NCBI GenBank assembly: GCA_030324005.1
Contig: JARDVH010000133.1
Location: 32,935,212 to 32,999,211 of the forward strand
Reading direction: 5' to 3'
Source of the DNA: Negaprion brevirostris
Lineage: Eukaryota
DNA length: 64,000 nucleotides
Notes under the pieces: generated by a model
Database searches by the model: none
Seen by the model: the letters and a program-made list of their open reading frames with translations, nothing else
What the model was told of the DNA's origin: nothing
Part shown: positions 3,637-64,000 of the stretch, piece after piece
How positions within the stretch are numbered: position 1 is the first letter of the stretch
How the letters are laid out: every line of letters begins with the position of its first letter
Made by a program: the position numbers and the translations under genes

Positions 3637-5145
3637 GTAAAGTTCTGTTAAATTCATACAATTGGATCTCTGGGATCTGTTGGGTTGTGACAATTTAAGG
3701 TTGTACTTTACTGTGAATGAAGAAACCAGTCCCTGCATTAGACTCAAAAGAGGGAGGTTGCTCCACCATTTTTGAATAAGCCAACCTCCAATCTGTAGGA
3801 ACTAGTCCAGAGTCTAAAGAATTTGGAAAATAACCACCAATGGATCTACTATTTCCAGGGCCACTTCCTTAAGTACTCTGGGTTGAAGATTATCAGGATG
3901 TGGAGATTAATCCACTTTTAATTTCCCCAAAACCATTTCTGTACTAATGCTGATTTCCTTCAGCTCCTCACTAAAACTTGCTTCTTTTAGAACTTCCTCA
4001 GAATTTCAGAAACCCGAAGGTTTTTATAAAGTCAGACTCATCCCCAACCATTCTTTTTTTCAGCATTAGTGTGAGGATAAGATGTTTCATTCCAGGCGTG
4101 ATTCTGCTGGCAAATGGAAGCCTTTATCAAATCAAACTTTATTTAATAACACAGTTTAATTCTAACAAATGAATTTGTTAAACTTTTACAATTTAACAGT
4201 TGAACAATACTTAAACATGACAAGACACATTTCTTAACTACTATCAATGTGAGTTCCAGTCAAGCAATATTTCTCTTATAGACCTAAGCTCCTTTTTAAA
4301 ATTAATTAGCAAAACACAAGTATACTTGCTTTGATTGAAGTTACCAAGCTTGAAGTTTTCAGAAAGCCTTTGGGAAGAGAGAGAGAGATGCTGCTTTCTT
4401 CTGACAGGCCAGGCAGTAACTGCTGTTAGTTTAAAATAAAAATGAAACTGTTTCTTTCCTTCAAACTTAGCTCCTCCCATTAACCACATGACTCTGTCCC
4501 TGTCAATCAACCTAATCAAAACTCACATGATGCTACATACCTAGTCTGAAATCCCAGAAGAACCTAAATAAACAAAAGGTTTATTAACTCTACATGGTAA
4601 CGCATCCCGAGCTAAAATCAGTTATCCTGCATTCTTAACATCTGCTGCATGTTTTCCCAGCCAAACTGACTCTTGTAATAAACATTGTCTCTTAATGCAA
4701 TCCCATCTTAAACACAACATATAGCAAAATAGCATAGAACGATCACAGTAAGAGTATTAAGAATTCCAGAATGAAACAGGATAAATGGAGTTAACATACA
4801 GATCAGCCATGATATAACTGACTAGCTGAACAGTCTCAAGGGTTTGAATGTTCTCTTTTCATTCCTATGCTGGGACCCACTTCTCTCAGTGAGAGGTGCC
4901 AGTTAAATCCTGTCTAGGTACATTGGTGGATATACTCTAAATGCTTTTTTGCCTTAATGTTGTACGTTGGCAACATTGATCAGAGTTTTATTTGGAAATA
5001 ACAAATGTTTGCCCTTGCCATTTCCTACCTGCATTGTGCCACGCTNNNNNNNNNNNNNNNNNNNNNNNNNNNNNNNNNNNNNNNNNNNNNNNNNNNNNNN
5101 NNNNNNNNNNNNNNNNNNNNNNNNNNNNNNNNNNNNNNNNNNNNN

Positions 5146-6780
5146 CCAATGGATCTACTATTTCCAGGGCCACTTCCTTAAGTACTCTGGGTTGAAGATT
5201 ATCAGGACCGTAAGATTATCTGCCTTCAAGCCCATCAATTTCCCCAAAGTCATTTCTCTACTAATGCTCATTTCCTTCAGCACCTCACTAAAACTTGTTT
5301 CTCTCAGCACTTCTGATACGTTATTCATGTCTTCCTTTGTGAAGATTGAAGCAAAGTGCAAATTTAATTCCTTGGCCATTGCTTTATTCCCCATTATGAA
5401 TTCTCCCGTTTCTGACTGTAAGGGCCTACATTTGTTTTTGTCAGTTTTTATGTTTCCCTTCCAGCCTACTTTCATACTCTATTTTTCCCTTCTTCATCAA
5501 TCCCTTGGTCCTCCTTTGCTGAATTTTAAACTTAAAATGCTTTTTCACTTTGTATTCTTTCTTGAATCTGATACTATCTCTAATTTCCCTTGTAAGCCAC
5601 GGTTTAACTATAATCCCCTTACCACTCTTGTGCCAAACAGGAATAAACAATTTCTGGAGTTCATCTATTTGTTCTCTAAATGCCTGTCATTGCATATCCA
5701 CTGTCTTTTCTTTCAGTAATGTTTCCCAGTCCATCATGGCCAATTCATGCCTCTTAGCATCATAGTTACCTTTATTGAGATTCAGGACCCTGGTTTCAGA
5801 ATCCACTATATCACTATACACCTTGACAAAGAATACTATATTTTGGTCCCTAAGGGCTCTCTTCTCATTGCACACCACCCTGTCCAATATGGCCCACTCC
5901 CTTGTTGGTTCCTCAATGTATTGCTCTAGAAAACCATCCCGAATGCACTCCAGAAATTCCTCCTCTGTTGCACTGTGACTAATTTGATTCTCCCAATCTA
6001 TATGCAGATTAAAGTCACCCATAATCACAGATGTTCTTTTAACACCTGTCTAATGCTTTTCCCAACATTACCACGACAGTTTGGTGGTCCTGTATACCAC
6101 CCCCACCAATGTTTTTTGCCCCTTGTTTCTTAACTTGACCCATACAGATTCCACATCATCTATGCTAATATCCTTTCCCAATATTGTATCAATACTATCT
6201 TTGAGCAACAATGCAATTCCGCCACCTTTTCCTTTCTATCTGACCTCCCTAAACACTGAATAGCTCTCAATGTTTAGTTCCCATCCTTGGTCACCTTGGA
6301 GCCATGTCTGCGTAATGCCACCTAAATCATATCCCATAACATCTATCTGTGCAACTAAGTCATCCATTTTGTTTCGAATGCTCCGAGCATTCAGTTACAA
6401 AACCTTACGGTGAGCACTGTTGACATTTCTTTTCCCTTTGGTACTGTTACTTATTCAGTCCTTATCTCACTCTGGCTCTTGAATTCTCTGCCTATTACTT
6501 CCCTTATTCTCCACACTGTCTTTTCCTCTTGTTCTTAATTTCCCCTGCTCTGAATCCTTGTAAAGGCTCCCATCCAACTGCCATGTTAAACCCTCATCCT
6601 TACAACATCCTTTCAGTCACATATTCATCCTATGTATCCTGCTGTTTCTACTCTGACTAGCACATGCCAAATCCTGAGATCACTACCTTTGAGGTCCTGC
6701 TTTTCAGCCTGCTCCCTATATTCTGCTTTTAGGACCTCAACCCTTTTTTTTTTAAACCTATGTCGTTTATACCAATGTGT
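5146..6780 (-). mobile_element. CR1 LINE fragment spanning ORF1 (esterase) to ORF2 endonuclease and linker
   Basis: IMGDFNLHIDW (APE endonuclease), MAKELNLHFASIFTKED, and HIGINDIG near 6760-6780. A related piece lies at 3775-3990. Confidence 0.88.
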
Positions 6781-10264: not shown

Positions 10265-10861
10265 GTAATTACTCATCTTCAAAAATGCCAGATAATTTAG
10301 TAAGATTTGTAATGTTTCTGCATTGGGAGAGGAATAGTGTAACAGTGTGTGTGTATCATTTGTAATTCATGCAAATCGACTATAAACTGATGCACATTAT
10401 CATTTATTGCATTATTGCATCAAAAGAGCAGTTGTAGGGTACATTGTGCTGGTGTTTGAGGGTAACCTATTTTAACATTGTCAACTTGTGTGGGTAAATG
10501 GTATCCGGTTTCTTCATTATTACTGCACGTTCTTGTATGATGCGCAGATAAATGTTTCTTTATGCTGGACTTACAATTATGGATCTTACATGCAACATAG
10601 AATTGAAAGCATTGCCCAAATTAAGTGGAATAGGCACAGATTTGTATATTTCTTCCTTTTTTCTCAGTGCTTCAAACTTTAAGTGCAACATTTTATATAA
10701 AGATTATAGTACGGTTTAATTTGTTTGGTGTCTCATACCATTTAAGAAAAATTAGTGATTTGATTATTCATTTCAATTTTGAAGATGGACAAAGTAAGCA
10801 AACTGCAAACCTTCGAATATGTATTTGGTACGTGGAAAATTGTGTGAATGTGTTGAATCAA

Positions 10862-11058
10862 ATGAAAAATACTGAGGAGGTTGGAATCCAAAACCAAAAC
10901 AGAAAATGCTGGAAAATCGTAGCAGATCTGACAGCATCTGTGGAGAGGGAATAGAGCCAACATTTCAAGTCTAAATGACAGTCATCTTGACTCAAAGTTG
11001 GCTCTATTTTCTCTCCGCAGGTGCTGTCAGATCTGTTGAGATTTTCCAGCATTTTCTG
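10862..11058. mobile_element. Family A palindromic element
   Basis: Arms at about 10899-10965 and 10995-11058 are reverse complements. Confidence 0.75.
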
Positions 11059-11606
11059 TGATATGTTGAATCATCTGTTTGGCGCCCAGAATTACGCAGT
11101 GACAGCCGGGAAAGGTTACAGTAGAAGTTCTGTTCTATTTTGTACAGGAGGGAAAGTATAAAAGGATAAAAGACTTTTTGGCTCTAAGTAGGTTTTATAA
11201 TGGATACCTAAACAGCAAGTAGTAATGATAAGTGCTGTCTGGTTTCTTTGTGGATCTTGAGCAATACTTGTACAATGCACATACTGTTTTGGTAGTTATA
11301 TTGATTCAGCATCTTAGATGATTCTGCTTGCCTGCCCTGCCCTATTTCTTTACCCACTACCCAGCCCTCATCCTGTCTCTAAAAATTATCCCTGCCTTCT
11401 AGCAGGCTTTTGATGGAAGTCTTTATTTGGAATCAAAGTCGTAGTGGTGTGTCTCAGTTCCTTCAGGTGGTCTGAGTTGCTTTTGCATGCATGTTGTTGT
11501 CTTTAGCCATGGATTGTGATGTTGAAGACTGCAACGTTCTTTCCGTTGTATGGCTAACGAGTAATCTCTCCTGTTCTTAGCCCCTACCATTGGCATAGAA
11601 GTCAGA

Positions 11607-14721: not shown

Positions 14722-15872
14722 TGTTCAGGTCAGAAACTTGGGTGTTTTATGGAATTTGCCTGGATCATAGGTTTTGCACCTTGAATTTGGCTAGGAGAAG
14801 CATGACATATTTCACCTTGGGTATGATTCAAATGACCCATGGGAAGCTCTTATCAAACAAAGTTTATTTAAGAATATAATTAACCTGTATGGAAAGAAAA
14901 TTAGCAATGACCTTTATCAATTACAAACAAAAACAAAACAACCGCGATAACAAATATATCTAAGATGTTTCAAACAAAAGTCCCCGTAAACAAAAAAACC
15001 CTTTCCACAGGTTTAATGCAGCAAAGACTAATGTCTGTGATATTGGAACTGAGTCCTTTGGTTGGAGAATTGAAACCCTGACTTCTCAGCTTATAACTTC
15101 TAGTAGCCTTTTGGAAACCTCGGAACGGTATAAAGTGAGAACAGCTTCCCTCCCATCTTCTTGGCCTGCCAACCCAGGAAGACCAGTAACCTAACAGGAT
15201 TTAGAGACATCCATGGTTCCCCTTTCTCCCAGGACTCCTAAAATAGCCACAAAAGCTACAGATCCTTGTGTGGCGCAGAATCTCTAGCCTTCAATTGGCC
15301 AACAGCTCTGATATGAGACTTCCGCCTGGAGATGGAAGGAAATCCCGATTCATACGAAGTAGGAACCATTGCTCAAAAAACTTAGAGCGGAAAGCGAGCC
15401 AAACAAAGGTAGGCTGTCCCCAAAATTTATTTGAGGGTGTGGGGAGCTCTCTCCATCAACATGTAATCCTGATGTGGAGTTGCTAGCATTGGACTGGGGT
15501 CGGCACAGTAAGTAGTCTCACAACACCAGGTTAAAGGCCAACAGATTTATTTGGCAGCGCAAGCTTTCAGAGTGTCGCTCCTTCACCTGATGAAGGAGCA
15601 AATTGTTGGTAAAATCGGGCCTAAAGTATCTGTCTAGAATAACAAGAGTTCTTTATAAGTCCATTGCACACATTCCTATTTCAAAATTTGTTGACTTATA
15701 CTCGCAGGAACTATTCCTGTGTAAAAAAAGTATGAGCATAACTATTCCTGAGTATAAACTGCACTCCTTCAAACCTGGTGGTCTGAAATAACCCAAAACA
15801 CCAGCAACTTGTGGCTCCTTAGAAACAAAAAGCCCAAATCATAATTTTCAAACCAACTTGATCCTGTAACCA
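14722..15872. mobile_element. Possible solo-LTR-like element
   Basis: Tentative TG...CA bounds; it interrupts a CR1; its first 160 nt or so resemble 4000-4160, suggesting a second copy at about 3995-4735. Confidence 0.35.
15470..15600. mobile_element. Family B Penelope-derived element, truncated
   Basis: Homologous to 63299-63450, with CTGATGAAGGAGCA at 15587-15600. Nested inside an LTR-like region. Confidence 0.7.
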
Positions 15873-22144: not shown

Positions 22145-22680
22145 TGTGTACAGTTCTAGTCACCCTATTATAGAATGAATATTATTAAACTAGAAAGAGT
22201 GCAGAAAAGATTTACCAGGATGCTACCGGGACTTGATGGTTTGCATTATAAGGAGAGGCTGGATAGACTGGGACTTTTTTCTCTGGAGTGTAAGAGGCTG
22301 AGGGGTGATCTTATAGAGGCCTATAAAATAATGAGGGGCATACATCAGCTAGATAGTCAATATCTTTTCCCAAAGGTAGGGGGGTCTAAAACTAGACGGC
22401 ATAGGTTTAAGGTGAGAGGGGAGAGATACAAAATGATCCAGAGGGGCAATTGTTTCACACGTGGGGGCGTCTGGAACAAGCTGTTGGAGGTAATAGTAGA
22501 GATGGGTACAAGTTTGTCTTTTGAAAAGCATTTAGACTGTTACATGGGGGTAAGATGGGTATCGAAGGGTATGGGCCAAACATGGGCAATTGGGACGAGC
22601 TTAGTGGTTTTAAAAAAAAGGGTGGCATGGACAAGTTGGGCCGAAGGGCCTGTTTCCATGCTGTGAACTCTATCATTGTA
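22145..22680 (+). mobile_element. CR1 LINE 3' end
   Basis: ORF 22175..22666 LERVQKRFTRMLPGLDGLHYKERLDRLGLFSLE..RLRGDLIEAYKI. Confidence 0.9.
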
Positions 22681-25474: not shown

Positions 25475-25641
25475 GAGAAAATGCTGGAAAATCTCAACAG
25501 ATCTGGCTGCATCTGTAAGGAGAGAAAAGAGCTGACGTTTCGAATCCAGATGACCCTTTGACAAAGCTGCCAGACCTGCTGAGATTTTCCAGCATTTTCC
25601 CTTTCGGTTTCAGATTTCAGCATCCGCAGAAATTTGCTTTT
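25475..25641. mobile_element. Family A palindromic element
   Basis: Same arms; minus strand retains GGGTC..GATTC GAAACGTC. Confidence 0.75.
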
Positions 25642-26165
25642 AAACTCGTGGAGAACTTTGGAAGAATGGATGTAGCTGGAAAGGATGAATGGGATGGATA
25701 GGATAGAGGTGGAGAGACTCTTCCCGCTCAGAAAGGACAGTAGGACTAGGGGGCACAGCCNNNNNNNNNNNNNNNNNNNNNNNNNNNNNNNNNNNNNNNN
25801 NNNNNNNNNNNNNNNNNNNNNNNNNNNNNNNNNNNNNNNNNNNNNNNNNNNNNNNNNNNNCGTTAGAATGCTGAGTCTATCAGGGCAGTCCTGTTTGTGA
25901 ATGTTGGGAAGGAGATGGAAGCTGCCTGTGTGAGTTTGAAGATAATTTAGGGAAACACTCCAGGAAGATGAGGTCAGTGATATTCTGAGAAATGCTGATT
26001 TGATACCAGCGGTAGCATCATAGCCGAATGTTGTTAGAAGTCACCACCACAGTTCTTCTGGAGGCAAAATCCCGTCTTCACTGTGGGGCCACGTCCGTTG
26101 TGTTATGTGACACTTCTGAAACCCCAAAATGGTAAGCTCAGAGATCAGAAACTTCAACTTCTAAC

Positions 26166-35487: not shown

Positions 35488-36090
35488 TTTAGTTTCTGGT
35501 CAACTGTTAACTTCTCCACCAAAAAATGTTGACAGTGGGTGACTCAACGATGATAATGTCACTGAACGTCGAGCGGACATCATTCAATCCCAAATCACGG
35601 AGGTGACTATTGCCTGGCATGATGCTACTTGTCACTTATCAGCCCAAGCCTTAATGCTGTGAAAATCTCCATTTCTGACCTTAAGATGGAGGGAAAGTCA
35701 TTGATCAAACAGCTGAAGATGGTTAGAACACAATCCTGAGGAACTCCTGCAGCAATATTCTGGGGCTACAATTTTATGACAGTTGTAAGTTTTAACTTGA
35801 CTTCAAACATTGACAAACACTTTGCTAATCCATCACAAGAAATGTCAATGGCATTCAATCTGCATACATCACTGTTAAATAAATGGGATCATTAATGACA
35901 ACATGCAGATTTTTTAAGGAATGGAGGATACAATAAAGAAATAGAAGTATAAGTATAAACCATGATATATTGAAATGGATTAATGTTAATATTTAAATAG
36001 CCTGAATTTAAACAAATTTCAGAAACACAACACTAGCAGTTACCATTTATTTTGGCATACTAAGCAGCACTGCTGTCTAACTTTTCTTTA

Positions 36091-36240
36091 TAAGAAGTCT
36101 CACAACACCAGGTTAAAGTCCAACAGGTTTATTTGGTATCAAAAGCCACTAGCTTTCAGGGCACTTGCTGCTCCTTCGTCAGGTGAGTGGGATTTCAGTT
36201 CACAAAAAGGGCATATAAAGACACAAACTCAATTTACAAA
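36091..36240 (-). mobile_element. Family B Penelope pLTR fragment running into an assembly gap
   Basis: agtctcacaacaccaggttaaagtccaacaggtttattt is shared with the 15.5 kb and 63.3 kb copies. Confidence 0.7.
36146..36186 (-). ncRNA. Minimal hammerhead ribozyme motif, same family, antisense in a POLE intron
   Basis: Minus strand reads UCAC-CUGACGA-A-GGAGCA GCAAG UGCCCU-GAAA-GCU-A-GUGG. Confidence 0.65.
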
Positions 36241-36659: not shown

Positions 36660-37192
36660 GGTGACAAAGTGGGTTAGCAGTGCTGCCTCACAGTGCCAGG
36701 CACCCGGGTTCAATTCTGGCCTCGGGCCACTGTCTGTGTGAAGTTTGTATGTTTTCCCCGTGTCTGCGTGGGTTTCCTCCGGTTTCTAATCATAGAATTC
36801 CTACAGTACAGAAGGAGGCAATTCGGCCCATCGAATCTGTACTGACCGCAATCCCACGCATTCAGGTAACCCGGCACATTTACCCTGCTAATCCCCCTGA
36901 CACCAGGGTCAATTTAGCACGGCCAATCGACCTCACCCGCACATCTTTGGACTGTGGAAGGAAACTGAAGCACCCGGTTGTGCAAACTTCGTACAGACAG
37001 TGACCCAAGCCAGGAATTGACACAGTCCAAAAATGTGCGGGTTAGGTGGATTGGCCGTGCTAAATTTTCCCTTAGTGGGATTAGGAGAGTAAATACGTGG
37101 GGTTATGGACATAGGGCCTAGGTGGGATTGTTGACGTTACAAACTCGATGGGCCAAATGGCCTCCTTCTGTACTGTAGATTCTATGATTCTA
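36660..37192 (+). mobile_element. V-SINE interrupted by an antisense V-SINE (about 36788-37020)
   Basis: The outer copy stops at ggtttcctccggtttct and resumes at cacagtccaaaaatgtg. Confidence 0.85.
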
Positions 37193-37836: not shown

Positions 37837-38032
37837 TAAAAGCAAAATACTGTGGATACTGAAATCTGAAACAAAAACAGAAAATATTGGAAAATCTCAG
37901 CAGGTCTGACAGCAACTGTGGTGAGAGAATCGAGTTCTGATGAAGGATGATCCTGACTCAACACCCTGGCTCTTTTCTCTTTCCACAGTTGCTGACAGAC
38001 TTACTGAGATTTTCCAGCATTTTCTGTTTTTG
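37837..38032. mobile_element. Family A palindromic element
   Basis: Same arms; central CTGATGAAGG at 37937. Confidence 0.75.
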
Positions 38033-39091
38033 ATACATAGGGTGGCCAGCGCTGGAGGCCATCAAAACCAAACGCCCTTGTATTAAAACAAACCTGGCTT
38101 TTGCATCCCCATCACAATGAGGCTGCTGCAAACTGAGAAATTAGCAGGCTTTGCTAAGACCTGTACTGCGGTAAGTGGACAAAGGATCAAGGTGCTGGCC
38201 GTGAAGCCATCTGGACTGTCTGGTCCAAAGCTGGACATCTGGCCTTCTAAATTTGTGGGTTTATTTCTCTGATTCATTGTCTACTGATCTACATCACAGA
38301 CACAAGCACTGAACGAATAACTTGTTTGCTGTTGAAGAATGTTGTTGCCAATAATTTTCATGATTATAATGCAGCTAATTAATTCTGACAAGTACATGCA
38401 TGCACTTTCTAAACAAAAAAGTTTGAGTTCTTTCATATCAGTTTGTCATCATCTGGCTCCAGAATGCAGTAGATTCCACCTGCCAAAAATCTGATTGGCA
38501 AGAATCCTGTTTTATTTGGAGTTTGTAACAACATGAACTGGTATGTGATTAGTTTTTTGCTCGCAACAGCATCCAGTTAGGTTGTTCAATTGATAAGTTA
38601 ATGAACCTCGCAGATTCAGGCAAGCCCTGTTGTTGATGGGCGCAATCACAGGAACAGCAGATGAAGCATTGAAGGTGCGAATTTTTATAAAACCCAGGCC
38701 CCAAACAGCATAATCATTCAGTATATTGACTTATAATGTATTTTAATCCAATTCCCTTTGCAAATAAAGTGGTCCCTAAATTCTGAGCTCAGACATCATG
38801 CAAAATTAACTTTAAAATGTCATTTAAGTACATTGGCGAAAAAGTAATTTATCAGTTGTCTCATCCTGACTTACAGTAATCTCTATTCCATGCTGGTTTC
38901 TTATTGAGCATAAACTCAGTCTGAATTCAATATTGACAGCAGAACAAGAAACTTAAAGGCAAGCCTGTGCTGGATTATTAGCAGCTGCTGGCACCCTTTC
39001 ATGTTTCATTCACACTGTTGTCACTGTTAGTATGGGAGCATCCTGCATTGTGGGAGTTACAGCTCCCATCAAACAATCTTCTGCAGTATGT

Positions 39092-39300
39092 TAAAAGGCA
39101 AAATACTGCGAATGCTGGACTTGGAAACAAAAACAGAAAATGCTAGAGAAACTCTACAGGTCTGACAGCATTTGTGGAGAGAGAGTCGAGCCAACATTGA
39201 GTTGGGACGAAGGGTTATCCTCAAAACATTGTCTCTATTCTCTCTCTCCACAGATGCTGTCAGATCTACTGAGTTTCTCCAGCATTTTCTATTTGTGTCT
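39092..39300. mobile_element. Family A palindromic element
   Basis: Inverted arms tctgacagcatttgtggagagaga / tctctctccacagatgctgtcaga. Confidence 0.75.
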
Positions 39301-50430: not shown

Positions 50431-50623
50431 TTAAAAGCAAATTACTGCAGATAACAGAAACAGAAAATGCTGGAAAATCTTAGCAGGTCTGAGAGAAAAC
50501 AGCACTAATCTGTTGAGTCTGGATCACCCTTCATTAGAGCTTCAACAAAGTGTCACCCAGACTCAAAACATTAACTTTGTTCTCGCTATCAGACCTGCTG
50601 AGATTTTCCAACATCTTCTGTTT
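50431..50623. mobile_element. Family A palindromic element
   Basis: cagaaaatgctggaaaatcttagcaggtctga / tcagacctgctgagattttccaacatcttctg. Confidence 0.72.
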
Positions 50624-53600: not shown

Positions 53601-54616
53601 AGTCAAGGACAGGGTGCCCTGATAGGGGCCATTATTCGATAGTCTAAGTTCCTTTCTCACAGCTATTATTACAGCAATTTTTAAGTTTCTGACTTTAATC
53701 CTAATACAGGAATATTAGAAAGTAATGCAGACATAAACGTAATCCACCTCATTAACTGATTGTTAAATACTTATCCTTCAATTACAGGATAATTGAGGTA
53801 CTTTCTTCGAATACACTCATCTGTTGCTAATCAGTGAATATTTCACAGCATTATGTTAAGTTATTTTGTTTTAAAAATTTAGCAACATTAATATGGCCTT
53901 TTTTCTGATAATGTGTTAGTAAAAATGACAACTTGAACTACGTGGGTTATTGCAGAATCCATTTTTTTGTAAAAAGCCTTTAAAATAAAATGGTCACATT
54001 GAGCAGACAACCTAAACACCACTAAAATAAAATCTAAAACCCAAGACTGCTCTCACAACTGATCCACCCTTGTATCAGATAGTTCCTTATCGGTTCTGGT
54101 CAAGTGAATTGATCAGTTATGCATTTGTTCAGTTTTAAGTGATGACTTGCAAGCATCACCTTCCAGTGTCATTTTAAACATGAGAAAGTATCACTTCCTG
54201 ACTTGCTGACATCAAGCCCATCAGTTACTCACAAGCTATGCGCTAAGTCCCACGTTATCTGTGAACAATTGAAAAGATTATTCTCTACAAATATTAGTGA
54301 CTTCATGTATTTGACATTTACCCTTAAATCGCTGATTGGGTAGTATCTGATCAATTGCTAAGGGAAGTGATGTTGGAATTGTAGGTAAAATTATTACGTG
54401 TGGCATCTTTGATATAAATTTTCTGTGGCTGTATGTGGCAATTAGCAACACATAAAAGCAAAGTGGCGAATGTGACAAATGAATAACTTTTATTCAAATC
54501 AAACTGTGTATTAATGCAGTACATGAAAATAGATTTAAAATATTGCAAACGTGAATTAACAAAATAAACAATGCAATTATGCAGTCAGCTGAGTGAAGTA
54601 TAGGTCAACTTTTCAA

Positions 54617-54750
54617 TAAAAGCAAATTACTGTGAATGCTGGAATCTGAAACCAAAAGAGAAAATGCTGGAAAAATCCAGGCCTGGTGACATCTGTAAGG
54701 AGAGAAAAGAGCTGACGTTTCAAGTCCAGATGACCCTTTACCAAAGGGCA
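54617..54750 (-). mobile_element. Family A single arm
   Basis: Closely similar to 425-548. Confidence 0.7.
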
Positions 54751-56282
54751 ACATTTTAGTCAGCTACTATTCTATGGTTAGGGGAGTAGGCAAACTACAG
54801 GAAGGAAAGGATAATAGTCAGTGGGTGTTTCTGTGATTGGAATCCGGTGAGACTGATAGGACTGTAGAAGATTCCTTCCTTTCTGTGTTATATATCAATG
54901 ATTAAGACTTGAATGTAGGAGGCATGATTAAATAGGTTACAGATGATAGAAAAATGGTTGTGTTAAAAATGAGGTAAAGAACTGTAGACTGCTGCGCTAC
55001 AATCTTGTTAGGGACTGTTAACATTTAAAGAAGAAACCCAAACACCCATCAATTAACTGACAAAATTACGCTACAAGATTTCACACTTGTCAACAAAAAC
55101 AAACTTTATTGTATGTCAGAAAATTTAAATAAACTATTAGCTTGAGCCTATAGCTCATGGAAACCCAAATGTAAAGTCAGTTCTACTTTTTCTTTCAAGG
55201 CCAAATTCTACAGGATATCTTTCCATTAGCTTTTTGTCTATGTGACCCTCCACNNNNNNNNNNCCTCCACATTTTCTTTCCTGACCTCACTACTCTGGAT
55301 TCCACAGCTCAAACATTCCTTAATTTTGGGGAACTACTATTGTATTTCTAACTGGAAAAACCATTGTGCCCCCAGTACTTTATCCTACTTGCTGTTTATG
55401 ATTTTGCCTTTCTAACTGTTAGGAAGTTAACCTGTTAACCTCTTGAGTCAACCCTGATTACCAGCGAGTTCAGTTTTGATAGGCTAGTTAATGTCACACT
55501 GTCAACCGCTGCCTTGATGTTAAGGGAAGTCAGTCTGAAATTCAGATCTCTTGTTCATATTTGGATTAAGAGTGTAATGAAGCCAAGAGCCATTTAGTCC
55601 TGGCGGAACCTAAACTAAGGTTATTACTGAGTAAGTGCTGCTCAAAAGAACTATCAATGATGCATTCTGTCACTGCTGATAATTGAGAGTAGACTAATGG
55701 AGTGATAATAGGTCAAATTGGATTACCTCTGCTTTGTGTATAGATATACCTGGGGAATTTTGCACATTGTCTGGTGCGTACCAGTGCTCTTGGCGTACTA
55801 GAACGACTTAGCTAAATACGCAGCTAGCTTTGAAATATGCCCGGAATATTCTAGCTCATTGTTATCAAGGCCCAGTGCCTTTTTTGTCCAATGCTTTCAG
55901 CCATTTCTTGATATCATGTGAGGTGTTATGTAATGAGGTGNNNNNNNNNNNNNNNNNNNNNNNNNNNNNNNNNNNNNNNNNNNNNNNNNNNNNNNNNNNN
56001 NNNNNNNNNNNNNNNNNNNNNNNNNNNNNNNNNNNNNNNNNNNNNNNNNNNNNNNNNNNNNNNNNNNNNNNNNNNNNNNNNNNNNNNNNNNNNNNNNNNN
56101 NNNNNNNNNNNNNNNNNNNNNNNNNNNNNNNNNNNNNNNNNNNNNNNNNNNNNNNNNNNNNNNNNNNNNNNNNNNNNNNNNNNNNNNNNNNNNNNNNNNN
56201 NNNNNNNNNNNNNNNNNNNNNNNNNNNNNNNNNNNNNNNNNNNNNNNNNNNNNNNNNNNNNNNNNNNNNNNNNNNNNNNNNN

Positions 56283-59419: not shown

Positions 59420-60350
59420 CATCGAACCTTATAGTTCAAAGGGGAGATGACTCAGGCCATTGTTCCTGTATCAATTCTTCAAAAGAGGTATCCAATTAAT
59501 GCCATTACTGTGCTTTCCCCATGGCCTTAACTTTCTTTTCGCTTTACAAATATGTATCCATTTCACTCTTGAAACTTAATCTTGAATCTACTCCCACTGC
59601 CCTTTCAGGATTACTCATTCCACAACATAGCGACATACTGTGCTTAGAAAAAAACTAAACTTCCCTCTTGTGCTTCTGACAGTTTTATTAAATCTGTCCC
59701 CTTGCTTACCGGTCATCCCATAAGTGAAATTGGAAACCGTTTCTCCCTTTTTACTCAATAATATCGCTTCATGATTTTGATTACCTCATTTAAACCTCCA
59801 CTTGGCTTTCTGTACTCTTAATTGATCAATTGCCTCTTCACATAACTGTAGTCTCCAATGCCTGATATAATTCTGATAAATCTCTTCCGCACCCTCTCCA
59901 AGATCTTGGATGCTTTTCCTAAACTGTAGTGCCCAGAATTAACCCAATACTCTAGCAATGACCTTGTCAATGATTTATGAAGTTTAAAAATAGTTTTGGC
60001 CCTTCTGTGCTCTGTCCTTATTTATAACACTTTTTTTATAAGTAGCTTTGTCAACTTGTCCTGTCATGATCAAGGTGTCTGTTCCTGCACTGCTTTTAAA
60101 ACTAAANNNNNNNNNNCTAATTTGACATTCCTCTGCATTGAACTCTGTACAGCATGTCTGTCCATTTCACTGATCCATCTAAGTTGTCCTAATGTCTCTA
60201 CAGTTCACCTCACTGTTTATTACATTTGCACATTTTGGATCATTTGAAAATTTTGAAATTGTACCCCTGGTATCCAAGTCCAGATCACTAATACATATCA
60301 AAAAGGTCAGTTGCCCCAATACCGATCCCTGTGGTAACCCCTTTCCTCAG
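59420..60350 (-). mobile_element. Degenerate CR1 3' fragment
   Basis: Minus strand GLPQGSVLG at about 60315-60340 and ILERVRKRF at about 59880-59905. Confidence 0.7.
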
Positions 60351-61122
60351 TTACACTCAGGTGATCATAGTCACTTGGCACAGAAGCCAAACGGCCCAGA
60401 GTGAAATACCTAGGATTCACTTTATTAAGAACTCAGGTTAACTTAGTTCTCTGGTAGCCAATAAATTGATCACAAAATTCAGGAAGGTGTTTCAAGTTAT
60501 TGCAGAGGTGAAAGTAAGCAGAGCACAAGTAACACACACATCGGAAATACTGTAACTTAATAGAAGAGAGAAAACACAAGTTTAAACTATGCAAGAATGG
60601 AATAGACTGGATGTTAAGGGGTTCGTCTTTCCCCAGAGTAATGAGGCTGGAATGCGTTGCTAGCTGCTGTGGTGGGTACTGGCTCTCTGTTTATCTCTAA
60701 GGGATGGGAAACTGTTTCTTGACTGAAGGCAGAGATTGTATCGTTTTTTTAAGCATCTTTTTAGTTAGCATTTGATCCATGTACTCACTTTAATAGTTTC
60801 AATCATCTGAGAGGGTTGGAGAAGAGTTTTTCAGAGTAATTTTTTTCTTATTGGCCAGGGGTCTCTCTTTCCTTACATGGCTNNNNNNNNNNNNNNNNNN
60901 NNNNNNNNNNNNNNNNNNNNNNNNNNNNNNNNNNNNNNNNNNNNNNNNNNNNNNNNNNNNNNNNNNNNNNNNNNNNNNNNNNTTCTTATTGGCCATGGGT
61001 CTCTCTTTCCTTACATGGCTGTGGGAAGGGGATAAGGAAATGTCTAATTAACATGGTTGTGTCATCATGAAATCCAGGGCTTGACGGATCAGCTGCCCTT
61101 TCCTTTCTCGTCAATTTTTGAA

Positions 61123-61770
61123 GAGCGGCACAGTGGTTAGCACTGCTGTCTCACAGCTCCACGGACTTGGGTTCACTTCCAGCCTTAGGTGACTGTGTGG
61201 GGTTTGGAATTCGCACATTCTCCCCATGTCTGCGTGGATTTCCTTTGGATGCTCCGGTTTCCGCCCAAGTTCAGACATGTGCAGGGTAGATGGATTGGCC
61301 ACGCTAAATTGCCCTTCGTATCCAATGATGTGTAGGGGTGGCACAGTGGTTAGCACTCTTGCCTCACAACACCAACAACTCCAGTTCGATTCCAGCCTTG
61401 GGTCACTGTCTGTGTGGAGTTGCACATTCTCTCCATGTCTGCATGGCTTTCCTCCGGGTGCTCCGGTTTCCTCCCACAGTCCAAAGATGTGCATGTTAGG
61501 TTGATTGGTGATGCTCAGTTGCCCCTTAATGTCAGGAGGATTAGCAGGTTAAATACATAGGGCTATGGGGATAGGGCCTAGGTGGGATTGTTGTTGGTCC
61601 AGACTCAATTGGCTAAATGTCCGCCTCCTCAATTAGATGTACTTGCTATGGTAAATGTGTAGGGTTACCGGGATGAGGGGATAGGGTGGCTGCGAATGAT
61701 ATTCTGTCAGAGAGTTGGTGTAATGATGATGGGCTCAATAGCCTCTTTGCAATGTATGGATTCTATGATG
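61123..61770 (+). mobile_element. Two V-SINEs; the second (about 61335-61625) is nested in the first
   Basis: Two ggcacagtggttagcact heads at 61126 and 61340. A second 3' tail ends ggattctatga at about 61768. Confidence 0.82.
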
Positions 61771-63298
61771 AGCCTAAAGCAGCCCATTCTTCAGACACTG
61801 CCATTCTGACCACTGGACAGCAGCAAACGTTGCAGCATGGAGCATTTTTATACATTGTCAAATTATGTATCTTAAAAAAAAAATTGGTATCATTGTTCAT
61901 TTTTATCTTACATACCTAATAAGCTAGCCTATAAGGTATTAGCACAAGTACCAATTCCCCGCCAATAGTAGAGTCTTAAAATTGGGTGATCATGTTTATT
62001 ATTGAACCTTGATGATGGTGTTAGCATGCGATTGTTTCAGGGCTGCATTAGTTTGACTTCTCAATGAGATAGTCGGTGAAGATACGTTATAAATTCTAAA
62101 GTGATTGCAAGCATCATCACCTATCTAAAGAGTCTTATAGTGTCAACAATTTTCACCCAGTCAGCGAAACCAAGAAAGTTCAGGGAGATTTTCTACTTTA
62201 AGTAATTCCTCAAGACCCATTCAGTATTTTTTGAAAACCATATCTGCATCCCATTTCACAATGGATAACATAATAAGAAAATCAACAATTTTTGCAATTT
62301 TCTGGTTGAATTGCTCTCAGTTCTTGTTCTGAAGCTCCGTGCTCATTGATTGCCAGTATAATTCTTTCTTTAAGAACCTATGTAGTAAAAAAAGGGTTAG
62401 TGAGTAGGTCTGTGGGTGCTTCATAATCATGTCCTAAGTAGTAAATGCAAATAGAACAATTGCACATTGTACTATGAAAAGGTTATCTTAATTTTGTGAG
62501 ATTATAAATGTCTAAATCTTTGTAAGTAGTTTCAAAGCTTTTCAAATTTAAGTTACATTTCATGAATTGCATGCATATCCTTGCAGACTGTAAAGGGAGG
62601 TGGCTGTATGGACCTTATTGTCCCATTTTATGCTTATGGATTAATTGTTAGATACAGCAAGGGAGTAGACTTTTTGTGCAGCTTTGCCTGAGACATCGAG
62701 GTTCCGCTTCAGTGATGTTATATAAATAGGGGAAGTGGAATCAAGATTTTCCTTGAGTCTGGTAATTATAGCTCCATTTAATCTACATCTGAAAGTTGAA
62801 AATGCTCAAATGTTATACTTACCCAAAGAGCAAAATGAGTCGTCAGCATGAAGCTAAAAGCAATAACTCTACTGAAAATTCTTTTGGAAGAGAGCTAAAG
62901 CATGGATGAGGGAAATAAGCAAAATAGACTGATTTTTTTTTTCCCACACAAACATCTATACAACCTATCAGACTGGCTTCCTACAATCCCTTTACTGGCC
63001 ACTCACCCCTTTTGAGGAAAGCAATTTCTTGAAGAATCTTTTTTGTGCAACAAACTAGCAACCGTGTTTCTTTTCCAAAGACAGGTAAGCAACATTGGTG
63101 TTTGAGATCTGGCAGTTGACATTTTCTGGTTTCTCTATCTAGGACAGGGATGACTATTACTTCTCTGAGCATATAATAGACATCCACCAGTCAGTTTGTT
63201 TTCAGCCAGAAGTAACTAAATTGAAGTGAATATCATTTGGCCAGTTTCTGAAAATCTATGAAAGTTTTTAATGAAAATATATATGTATATAAAAAAGC

Positions 63299-63518
63299 CA
63301 TGAAGTGGAGGTGTCGGTGTTGGACTGGGATGGGCACAGTATGAACTCTCAACACCAGGTGAAAGTCCAACCGGTTTCTTGGGAATCACGAGCTTTTGCA
63401 GCGCTGCCTCTTTGTCAGATGAGTGAATTCATCATCTGATGAAGGAACTGCACTCCGAAAGCTCGTGATTTCAAAGAAACCTTTTGGACTTTCACCTGGT
63501 GTTGTTAGACTTCTTACT
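63299..63518. mobile_element. Palindromic Penelope pLTR-derived element (family B)
   Basis: Inverted arms aacaccaggtgaaagtccaa / ttggactttcacctggtgtt centred on GAATTC at 63425-63430. Each arm has a hammerhead-like core. Confidence 0.75.
63431..63469 (+). ncRNA. Minimal type I hammerhead ribozyme motif (Penelope-associated, dimer-type)
   Basis: Stem I AUCAU/GUGAU; CUGAUGA at 63436-63442; stem II GGA/UCC; GAAA at 63457-63460; palindromic AGCU stem III; predicted cleavage after C63464. Confidence 0.75.
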
Positions 63519-64000
63519 ATATATAAAAAGGGCTGATCTCTGATTCATCACAGAAGGTACTTGTCATAATATTGCTGAATTCATTGATGACACTGGGTCA
63601 GATGAGAAGCATAAAGGAGGAATGACAGCATTAAAAGGTATCTGGACAAATACTGAACAATTGTGTAAGAAAAAACATTTAAATGTAGATAAATGTAAGC
63701 AGTGCATATTAAAACAATTATGCAGCAAATTTGTAAAGAAAAGGATGAAGATTTGACTACTGACTATTCCTTGAAAGTGAATACCTGGCTGTGAAGCTGT
63801 TGTTGATGATGACCTGGTAATCCAATGCATCAAAAATTTCACTACAACTTAAAATAAGTGGTTGCATGTTTGCATAGTAAATTGAGCACTATACTTTTAG
63901 GATCTTGATTGACCTGCAAGCAGAATGATCATCAAGGAACTTAACAGGATTTCAAATTATGAGGAGAGTTTCACAGATCTATAGCTACTTTTTATTGGGA

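Follow-up and report, generated by a model that had tools for sequence, protein, structure and literature searches.

The question raised by this locus is whether the motif at 63431-63469 in a 64,000-nt stretch of Negaprion brevirostris DNA (hereafter the window) is a hammerhead ribozyme, what kind of repeat carries it and whether this copy might still cut itself. It is very probably a minimal hammerhead located within the terminal repeat of a very abundant, most likely Penelope-like element (PLE), preserved as an old, decaying inverted stub of which the ribozyme is predicted to be silent. The motif reads as follows:

63431..63469, + strand: minimal type I hammerhead motif, core intact, helix II of 3 bp, predicted cut after C63464

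The sequence-only reading reported a complete core with a 5-bp helix I (four Watson-Crick pairs and one GU pair) and a 3-bp helix II on the plus strand, and this was verified letter for letter. No change is seen in C17 or in any of the 11 invariant core bases, with C3 at 63436, G5 at 63438, G8 at 63441, A9 at 63442, an extra A at 63443, G10.1 at 63444, C11.1 at 63456, G12 at 63457, A15.1 at 63460, U16.1 at 63463 and C17 at 63464. In helix I (63431-35/63465-69), the GU pair adjoins the cleavage site. The fifth pair of this helix exists because one base is deleted here in comparison with the mirror arm, and it forms in just two of eight aligned rows, the family having a helix I of about 4 bp versus 5 bp here. 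Helix II consists of GGA/UCC with a 7-nt loop. As also claimed, helix III is the palindrome AGCU (63460-63463) without a closable helix, and AGCU is found in all four arms of the family in the window.

Minimal hammerheads (min-HHR) have been described in the pLTRs of metazoan PLEs by Cervera and De la Pena (2014; PMC4209133). Shared with these are the core (CUGANGA, GAAA and UH), an extra base between 9 and 10.1 (here the unpaired A63443), the G10.1-C11.1 pair (G63444-C63456), the palindromic 15.2-16.2 and a helix I of 4-5 bp, itself within the 3-5 bp range of PLE min-HHRs. The 3-bp helix II is shorter than their consensus of about 5-6 bp or more, with 3-4-bp examples given in Fig. S3 of that paper. 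A published sea-urchin example has helix I as in 63431-63469 except for the wobble, while a turtle example shares the GAAAGCU core, and 11 bases downstream of it match a copy at 15.5 kb in the window (PMC4209133). No cartilaginous fish was noted in either Fig. S3 or Table S1 of the same paper.

The core pattern matches twice in the 64-kb window versus 0.02 expected, with none of 100 shuffles reaching two, and the second match is a paralog on the minus strand at 36150-36182. With the full descriptor (helix I of at least 4 bp, helix II of at least 3 bp), two matches are again obtained in the window and none in 100 simulated windows. If the motif were a chance resemblance in a repeat without ribozyme ancestry, this result would be hard to obtain, and the features that were not selected for (the extra base after A9, G10.1-C11.1 and the palindromic GC) would not be expected to fit the published consensus as they do. 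Such a resemblance would be in line with the Rfam covariance models, which gave no hammerhead match at E ≤ 10 in 62500-64000, and with the folding of the bare 39-mer, which is no better than that of shuffles (z 0.37). Rfam models run over the whole window gave nothing at gathering score. A miRNA assignment was rejected, the Rfam miRNA-hairpin matches being sub-threshold only; these arise because the inverted repeat forms a long hairpin.

The motif had been placed in a palindromic repeat; more precisely, it occupies the inner portion of one arm, the right one, of a far larger inverted repeat (63338-63518) with arms that are ~80% identical. The whole unit is 224 bp long (63296-63519) with asymmetric ends, and its parts and flanks are:

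63286..63295, + strand: left-hand copy of an AT-rich direct repeat of 10 bp that likely represents a target-site duplication
63296..63337, - strand: AC-rich one-sided 'tail' of ~40 nt; paralog ends at 63300-63305 and 63517-63520
63338..63427, - strand: left arm, putative inverted 5'-truncated pLTR end, ~80% identical to the right arm
63385..63423, - strand: decayed hammerhead of the left arm, with A in place of G8 (63413) and G12 (63397) and helix II disrupted
63424..63431: self-complementary 8-base centre, the inversion junction
63428..63519, + strand: right arm, putative 5'-truncated pLTR end of a Penelope-like element, ending at the proximal 3' end, without tail
63520..63529, + strand: right copy of the 10-bp direct repeat

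Both G8 and G12 are essential in hammerhead chemistry. The end of the right arm agrees with the paralogs, which stop or run into the tail at 63517-63520. For PLEs, pLTRs in inverted orientation have been described, as have palindromes at the junctions, a 31-bp tail that may be missing and duplications of 8-10 bp (PMC3846280; bioRxiv 2021.04.23.441226). The unit resembles the PLE insertions described by Arkhipova (2013, PMC3846280) and Craig (2021, bioRxiv 2021.04.23.441226) in its inverted, 5'-truncated copy with head-to-head ends, its palindromic junction and its one-sided tail of 30-40 bp. Unlike those insertions, it consists of two stubs of ~90 and ~130 bp and has no coding sequence. Most min-HHRs in PMC4209133 are solitary truncated copies, with opposite-strand pairs 100-700 bp apart also mentioned, whereas the pair studied here abuts at the 8-base centre. 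The duplication remains unproven since no empty site was seen in four sequencing runs; the repeat is of low complexity, and a 10-mer is common to 6 of 1178 control pairs.

Two further copies are present in the window:

15466..15603, - strand: paralog with tail and broken core, with a short inverted stub at its 5' end
36089..36200, - strand: paralog without tail, with intact core (36150-36182)

The 36-kb paralog has a 4-nt insertion in loop II, and its U-rich upstream sequence runs into an assembly gap. The 15.5-kb paralog folds back inside the core (15584-15603), at a centre that differs from that of the 63.4-kb unit, so that its plus strand keeps the 5' half-ribozyme only. The left arm and the 15.5-kb copy have the tail, which the right arm and the 36-kb copy lack. 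Paralogs end at 63300-63305, at 63517-63520 or beyond 63518 in a left-arm-type extension, and the family therefore has two preferred 3' ends. The loose ends of the paralogs read CUGAUGA, have C at 2.1 and form a helix II of 5 bp. The CpG at C11.1-G12 (63456-63457 and equivalents) is mutated in three of the four window arms, so that a catalytic base likely coincides with a hot spot of methylation.

Based on contigs from four runs mapped on 62800-64000, the element reaches a depth of 12,000-480,000 versus 5-15 in the flanks, with 1,978-2,506 records per run at 88% likeness. The repeat family is thus very high-copy, thousands-fold in all four runs, where depth is not to be equated with copy number. 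Both insertion junctions are bridged by contigs in all four runs, of which X1 is possibly the source of the window itself, and the flanks of one bridging run differ by ~5-6% (30/515 and 24/515). No host exon was recognised by eye among the reading frames of at least 35 aa in 59.5-64 kb. Three small 2016 assemblies (X5, X8 and X15) contain 17-38% of the words sampled from 60000-64000.

These data bear on the idea that the 224-bp palindrome is a mobile non-autonomous unit, MITE-like or retrozyme-like, that is copied whole rather than built at insertion. Private letters common to both arms (e.g. the U at 2.1) would fit, although they are equally expected from one shared template, and in each run 53-91 records can be placed at two positions of the stretch. 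However, neither window paralog is such a palindrome (one is a single arm, the other has a short stub), joints in other records have different centres, the tail makes the ends asymmetric and there is no same-strand tandem, which retrozymes need. Copying of the whole unit is thus quite improbable, and a classic MITE was rejected on account of the asymmetric ends. According to Li (2026, bioRxiv 2026.07.22.740005), non-LTR retrozymes likewise carry a type I hammerhead in PLE-derived non-coding repeats, and one chondrichthyan genome is positive for both hammerhead retrozymes and PLEs. Those retrozymes are same-strand tandems with at least two intact ribozymes, in contrast to the inverted pair with one intact core found here; the unit does not qualify as a non-LTR retrozyme because the pair is inverted and the second core broken. 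An inverted stub built at insertion remains the preferred reading.

Because the window has no PLE coding frame (tblastn best E 0.91), the link to a coding element runs via metagenome relatives. Scanning contigs with the core pattern yielded 17 metagenome loci and 9 viral loci, of which L011, L009/L006, L008 and L012 were used. Locus L011 has a GIY-YIG frame (Pfam E 7.5e-5) with the ribozyme ~300 bases later, and its sequence 3' of the ribozyme, outside the search pattern, aligns to all four window arms (0/1000 shuffles each). L008 also has a GIY-YIG frame (4e-7). The frame of L009 is 42% identical to that of L011 and comes with a ribozyme in which helices I and II both have 5 bp, and L006, which overlaps L009 and is near-identical to it, is the only locus with a piece of reverse transcriptase (RT), in inverted orientation. 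Downstream homology to the window arms is clear in one of the 17 metagenome loci and weak in two (L006 and L009). A PDB search with the L011 frame gave a weak endonuclease II match only (E 0.11), and a family marker outside the ribozyme had no matches in the viral and metagenome contigs.

Behind the GIY-YIG frames, helix I, of which the 5' strand lies outside the search, measures 3 bp in L008, 4 bp in L011 and 5 bp in L009, versus 0-2 bp in all seven scored viral-contig matches. Together with the pattern and descriptor statistics, the downstream homology of L011 refutes a chance resemblance, the probability of which is close to nil. The sequence-only reading of a minimal type I hammerhead of the PLE kind with a palindromic helix III is upheld by these relatives and by the conserved core and stems: the family retains CUGAUGA, GAAA and the stems. 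The high-copy repeat that carries the motif is most likely a Penelope-like retrotransposon.

Among the other loci, L002, L010, L014 and L015 and the viral matches look like chance (helix I of 0-2 bp), and L013, L021 and L026 fall outside the helix-scoring pattern. Loci L001, L003, L004, L005, L007 and L016 represent a separate repeat of one assembly with an intact core and a helix I of just 1-3 bp. The marine metagenome contigs L011:120-420, L009:48-578 and L006:102-449 can be described in their own right as Penelope-like ends with related minimal hammerheads.

A cysteine-rich stretch ahead of the GIY-YIG part in L011, L009 and L008, recognised by eye without a tree, points to the Neptune clade. 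In this respect the relatives would differ from the Anolis element Poseidon PAc studied by Frangieh (2024, PMC11167929). The family resembles PAc in the AT-rich target, the AC-rich 3' region and the tail between two ends. The RT of PAc starts 85-92 nt behind the cut site and the long end here measures 90-94 nt, which is a resemblance and not a test (PMC11167929).

The sequence-only reading further suggested that this copy may still self-cleave after C63464. This part fares poorly, given the weak helix II, sequestration by the mirror arm, the broken neighbour on the opposite strand and the little activity of published examples. Helix II has gone from 5 to 3 pairs relative to the paralogs, the two being lost without compensation, and its predicted energy is -0.2 kcal/mol versus -5.8 kcal/mol in L009. 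The whole element folds as a hairpin of -106.6 kcal/mol (z -15), from which the hammerhead fold would cost ~39 kcal/mol (probability ~1e-28). The predicted probability of the hammerhead fold is 0.088 in the bare 39-mer and 1.6e-6 in 63420-63520. For 63425-63480, the construct that had been proposed for in vitro transcription, it is 0.0026 (0.26%); a negative result with this construct would reveal little since it is predicted to misfold. With all 12 start points tried, in transcripts to 63530, the probability of helix I is at most 0.0002, and it is 0 in all three partial transcripts. For dimers of the 39-mer, the active type has -7.1 kcal/mol versus -16.7 kcal/mol for the best structure. Protein help, tertiary contacts and Mg2+ are ignored by these folding models. 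The sole neighbouring copy lies on the opposite strand with G8 and G12 changed, leaving no same-strand dimer partner, and the next intact core is 27 kb off on the other strand.

Published activities of related ribozymes are low as well. The monomer of a schistosome minimal hammerhead is inactive and its dimer has low activity (PMC4209133), and of nine Xenopus dimer elements one is active and eight show no cleavage (bioRxiv 2026.07.22.740005). The anole PLE hammerhead cut only with the protein of the element; cutting was dispensable for insertion in vitro, and no reads ended at the site (PMC11167929).

A copy that is still cleavage-competent would need either transcription that begins close to the centre or refolding by a PLE protein, and would then cut after C63464 with AGCU pairing in trans. 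The intact invariant bases and C17 would allow this, helices I and II do form in the bare 39-mer (pair probabilities 0.60-0.94), potential trans partners number thousands and the protein dependence of the anole hammerhead offers a precedent. However, adding 6 upstream and 11 downstream bases already brings the probability of the hammerhead fold to 0.0026 or below, the active dimer lies 9.6 kcal/mol above the best dimer, helix II is weak and most Xenopus dimers fail to cleave. An intact core in two of four arms is also what neutral decay would give (P 0.25-0.52). Continued competence is therefore improbable. In vivo self-cleavage of the 63431-63469 copy is unlikely given its weak helix II, the hairpin and the missing partner; the class is a known one and the family assignment was right.

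Decay of the core is similar to that elsewhere in the four window arms, with 4/44 deviations versus 35/290. In run X7, changes are faster in the centre (5/94) than in the flanks (12/891; p 0.017), where one flank record takes in part of the arm and the identity of the changed letters is not given. In run X9, 5/147 changes in the centre compare with 26/1049 in the flanks (p 0.58). The centre contigs of both runs are presumed orthologs by overlaps alone, and their core letters are swamped by paralogs. The core is without sign of constraint in this small test. Covariation in the helices is weak: over eight aligned rows, 76.6% of positions expected to pair are paired (reached in 6/500 shuffles) and three two-sided changes are seen (56/500 shuffles), with four of the eight rows having been picked by a pattern that fixes some of the paired bases.

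The stub is inferred to have originated as follows. The endonuclease of the element would nick an AT-rich site, after which the reverse transcriptase would copy just ~125 nt from an internal start. Synthesis would then fold back at the short central palindrome to give the second arm, and the stub would mutate neutrally from there on. With the ribozyme of an intact element, the cut would fall after C17 in a dimer held together by AGCU/AGCU pairing of tandem repeats, and the protein of the element would probably assist. When RNA enters the 63.4-kb unit from upstream, the arms would pair and bury the core, whereas RNA from the other strand would carry the broken copy only. Silence of the 63431-63469 copy via its mirror arm is what the folding models predict.

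One can also imagine the solitary and inverted PLE stubs, thousands in number, as latent cut sites: a protein would open the hairpin, a stub with an intact core would dimerise in trans via AGCU with active PLE RNA, and host transcripts would be cut when the element is expressed, the insertion shared by four organisms being a site that was kept. This is highly improbable. If stubs were truly cut in vivo within host transcripts, it would matter.

Several other repeats accompany the family in the window. Seven short, mostly palindromic repeats of a second, unrelated family carry decayed hammerhead-like remnants near their centres (e.g. 37933-37960):

422-595: repeat of the second family
10860-11059: repeat of the second family
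25476-25642: repeat of the second family
37838-38035: repeat of the second family
39094-39298: repeat of the second family
50452-50623: repeat of the second family
54616-54752: repeat of the second family

None of these remnants passes a relaxed descriptor that allows one core mismatch; the seven repeats likely belong to another PLE family. An abundant SINE-like repeat occurs in about ten copies, including inverted and tandem pairs at 36788-37189 and 61121-61629. Judging by eye, we take 4958-6049, 22160-22666 and 59800-60350 to be decayed fragments of a LINE-type reverse transcriptase and endonuclease.

Earlier publications already cover the class and its occurrence among vertebrates, as well as the inverted layout and the tail. 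No paper on this particular family emerged from the literature searched. As it stands, the finding thus means little, being another decayed copy of a ribozyme class known across animals since 2014. The family is possibly uncatalogued in papers for this lineage, and its abundance makes it a source of young copies for testing PLE hammerheads. The stub itself illustrates how an insertion of this inverted kind would silence the ribozyme it carries.
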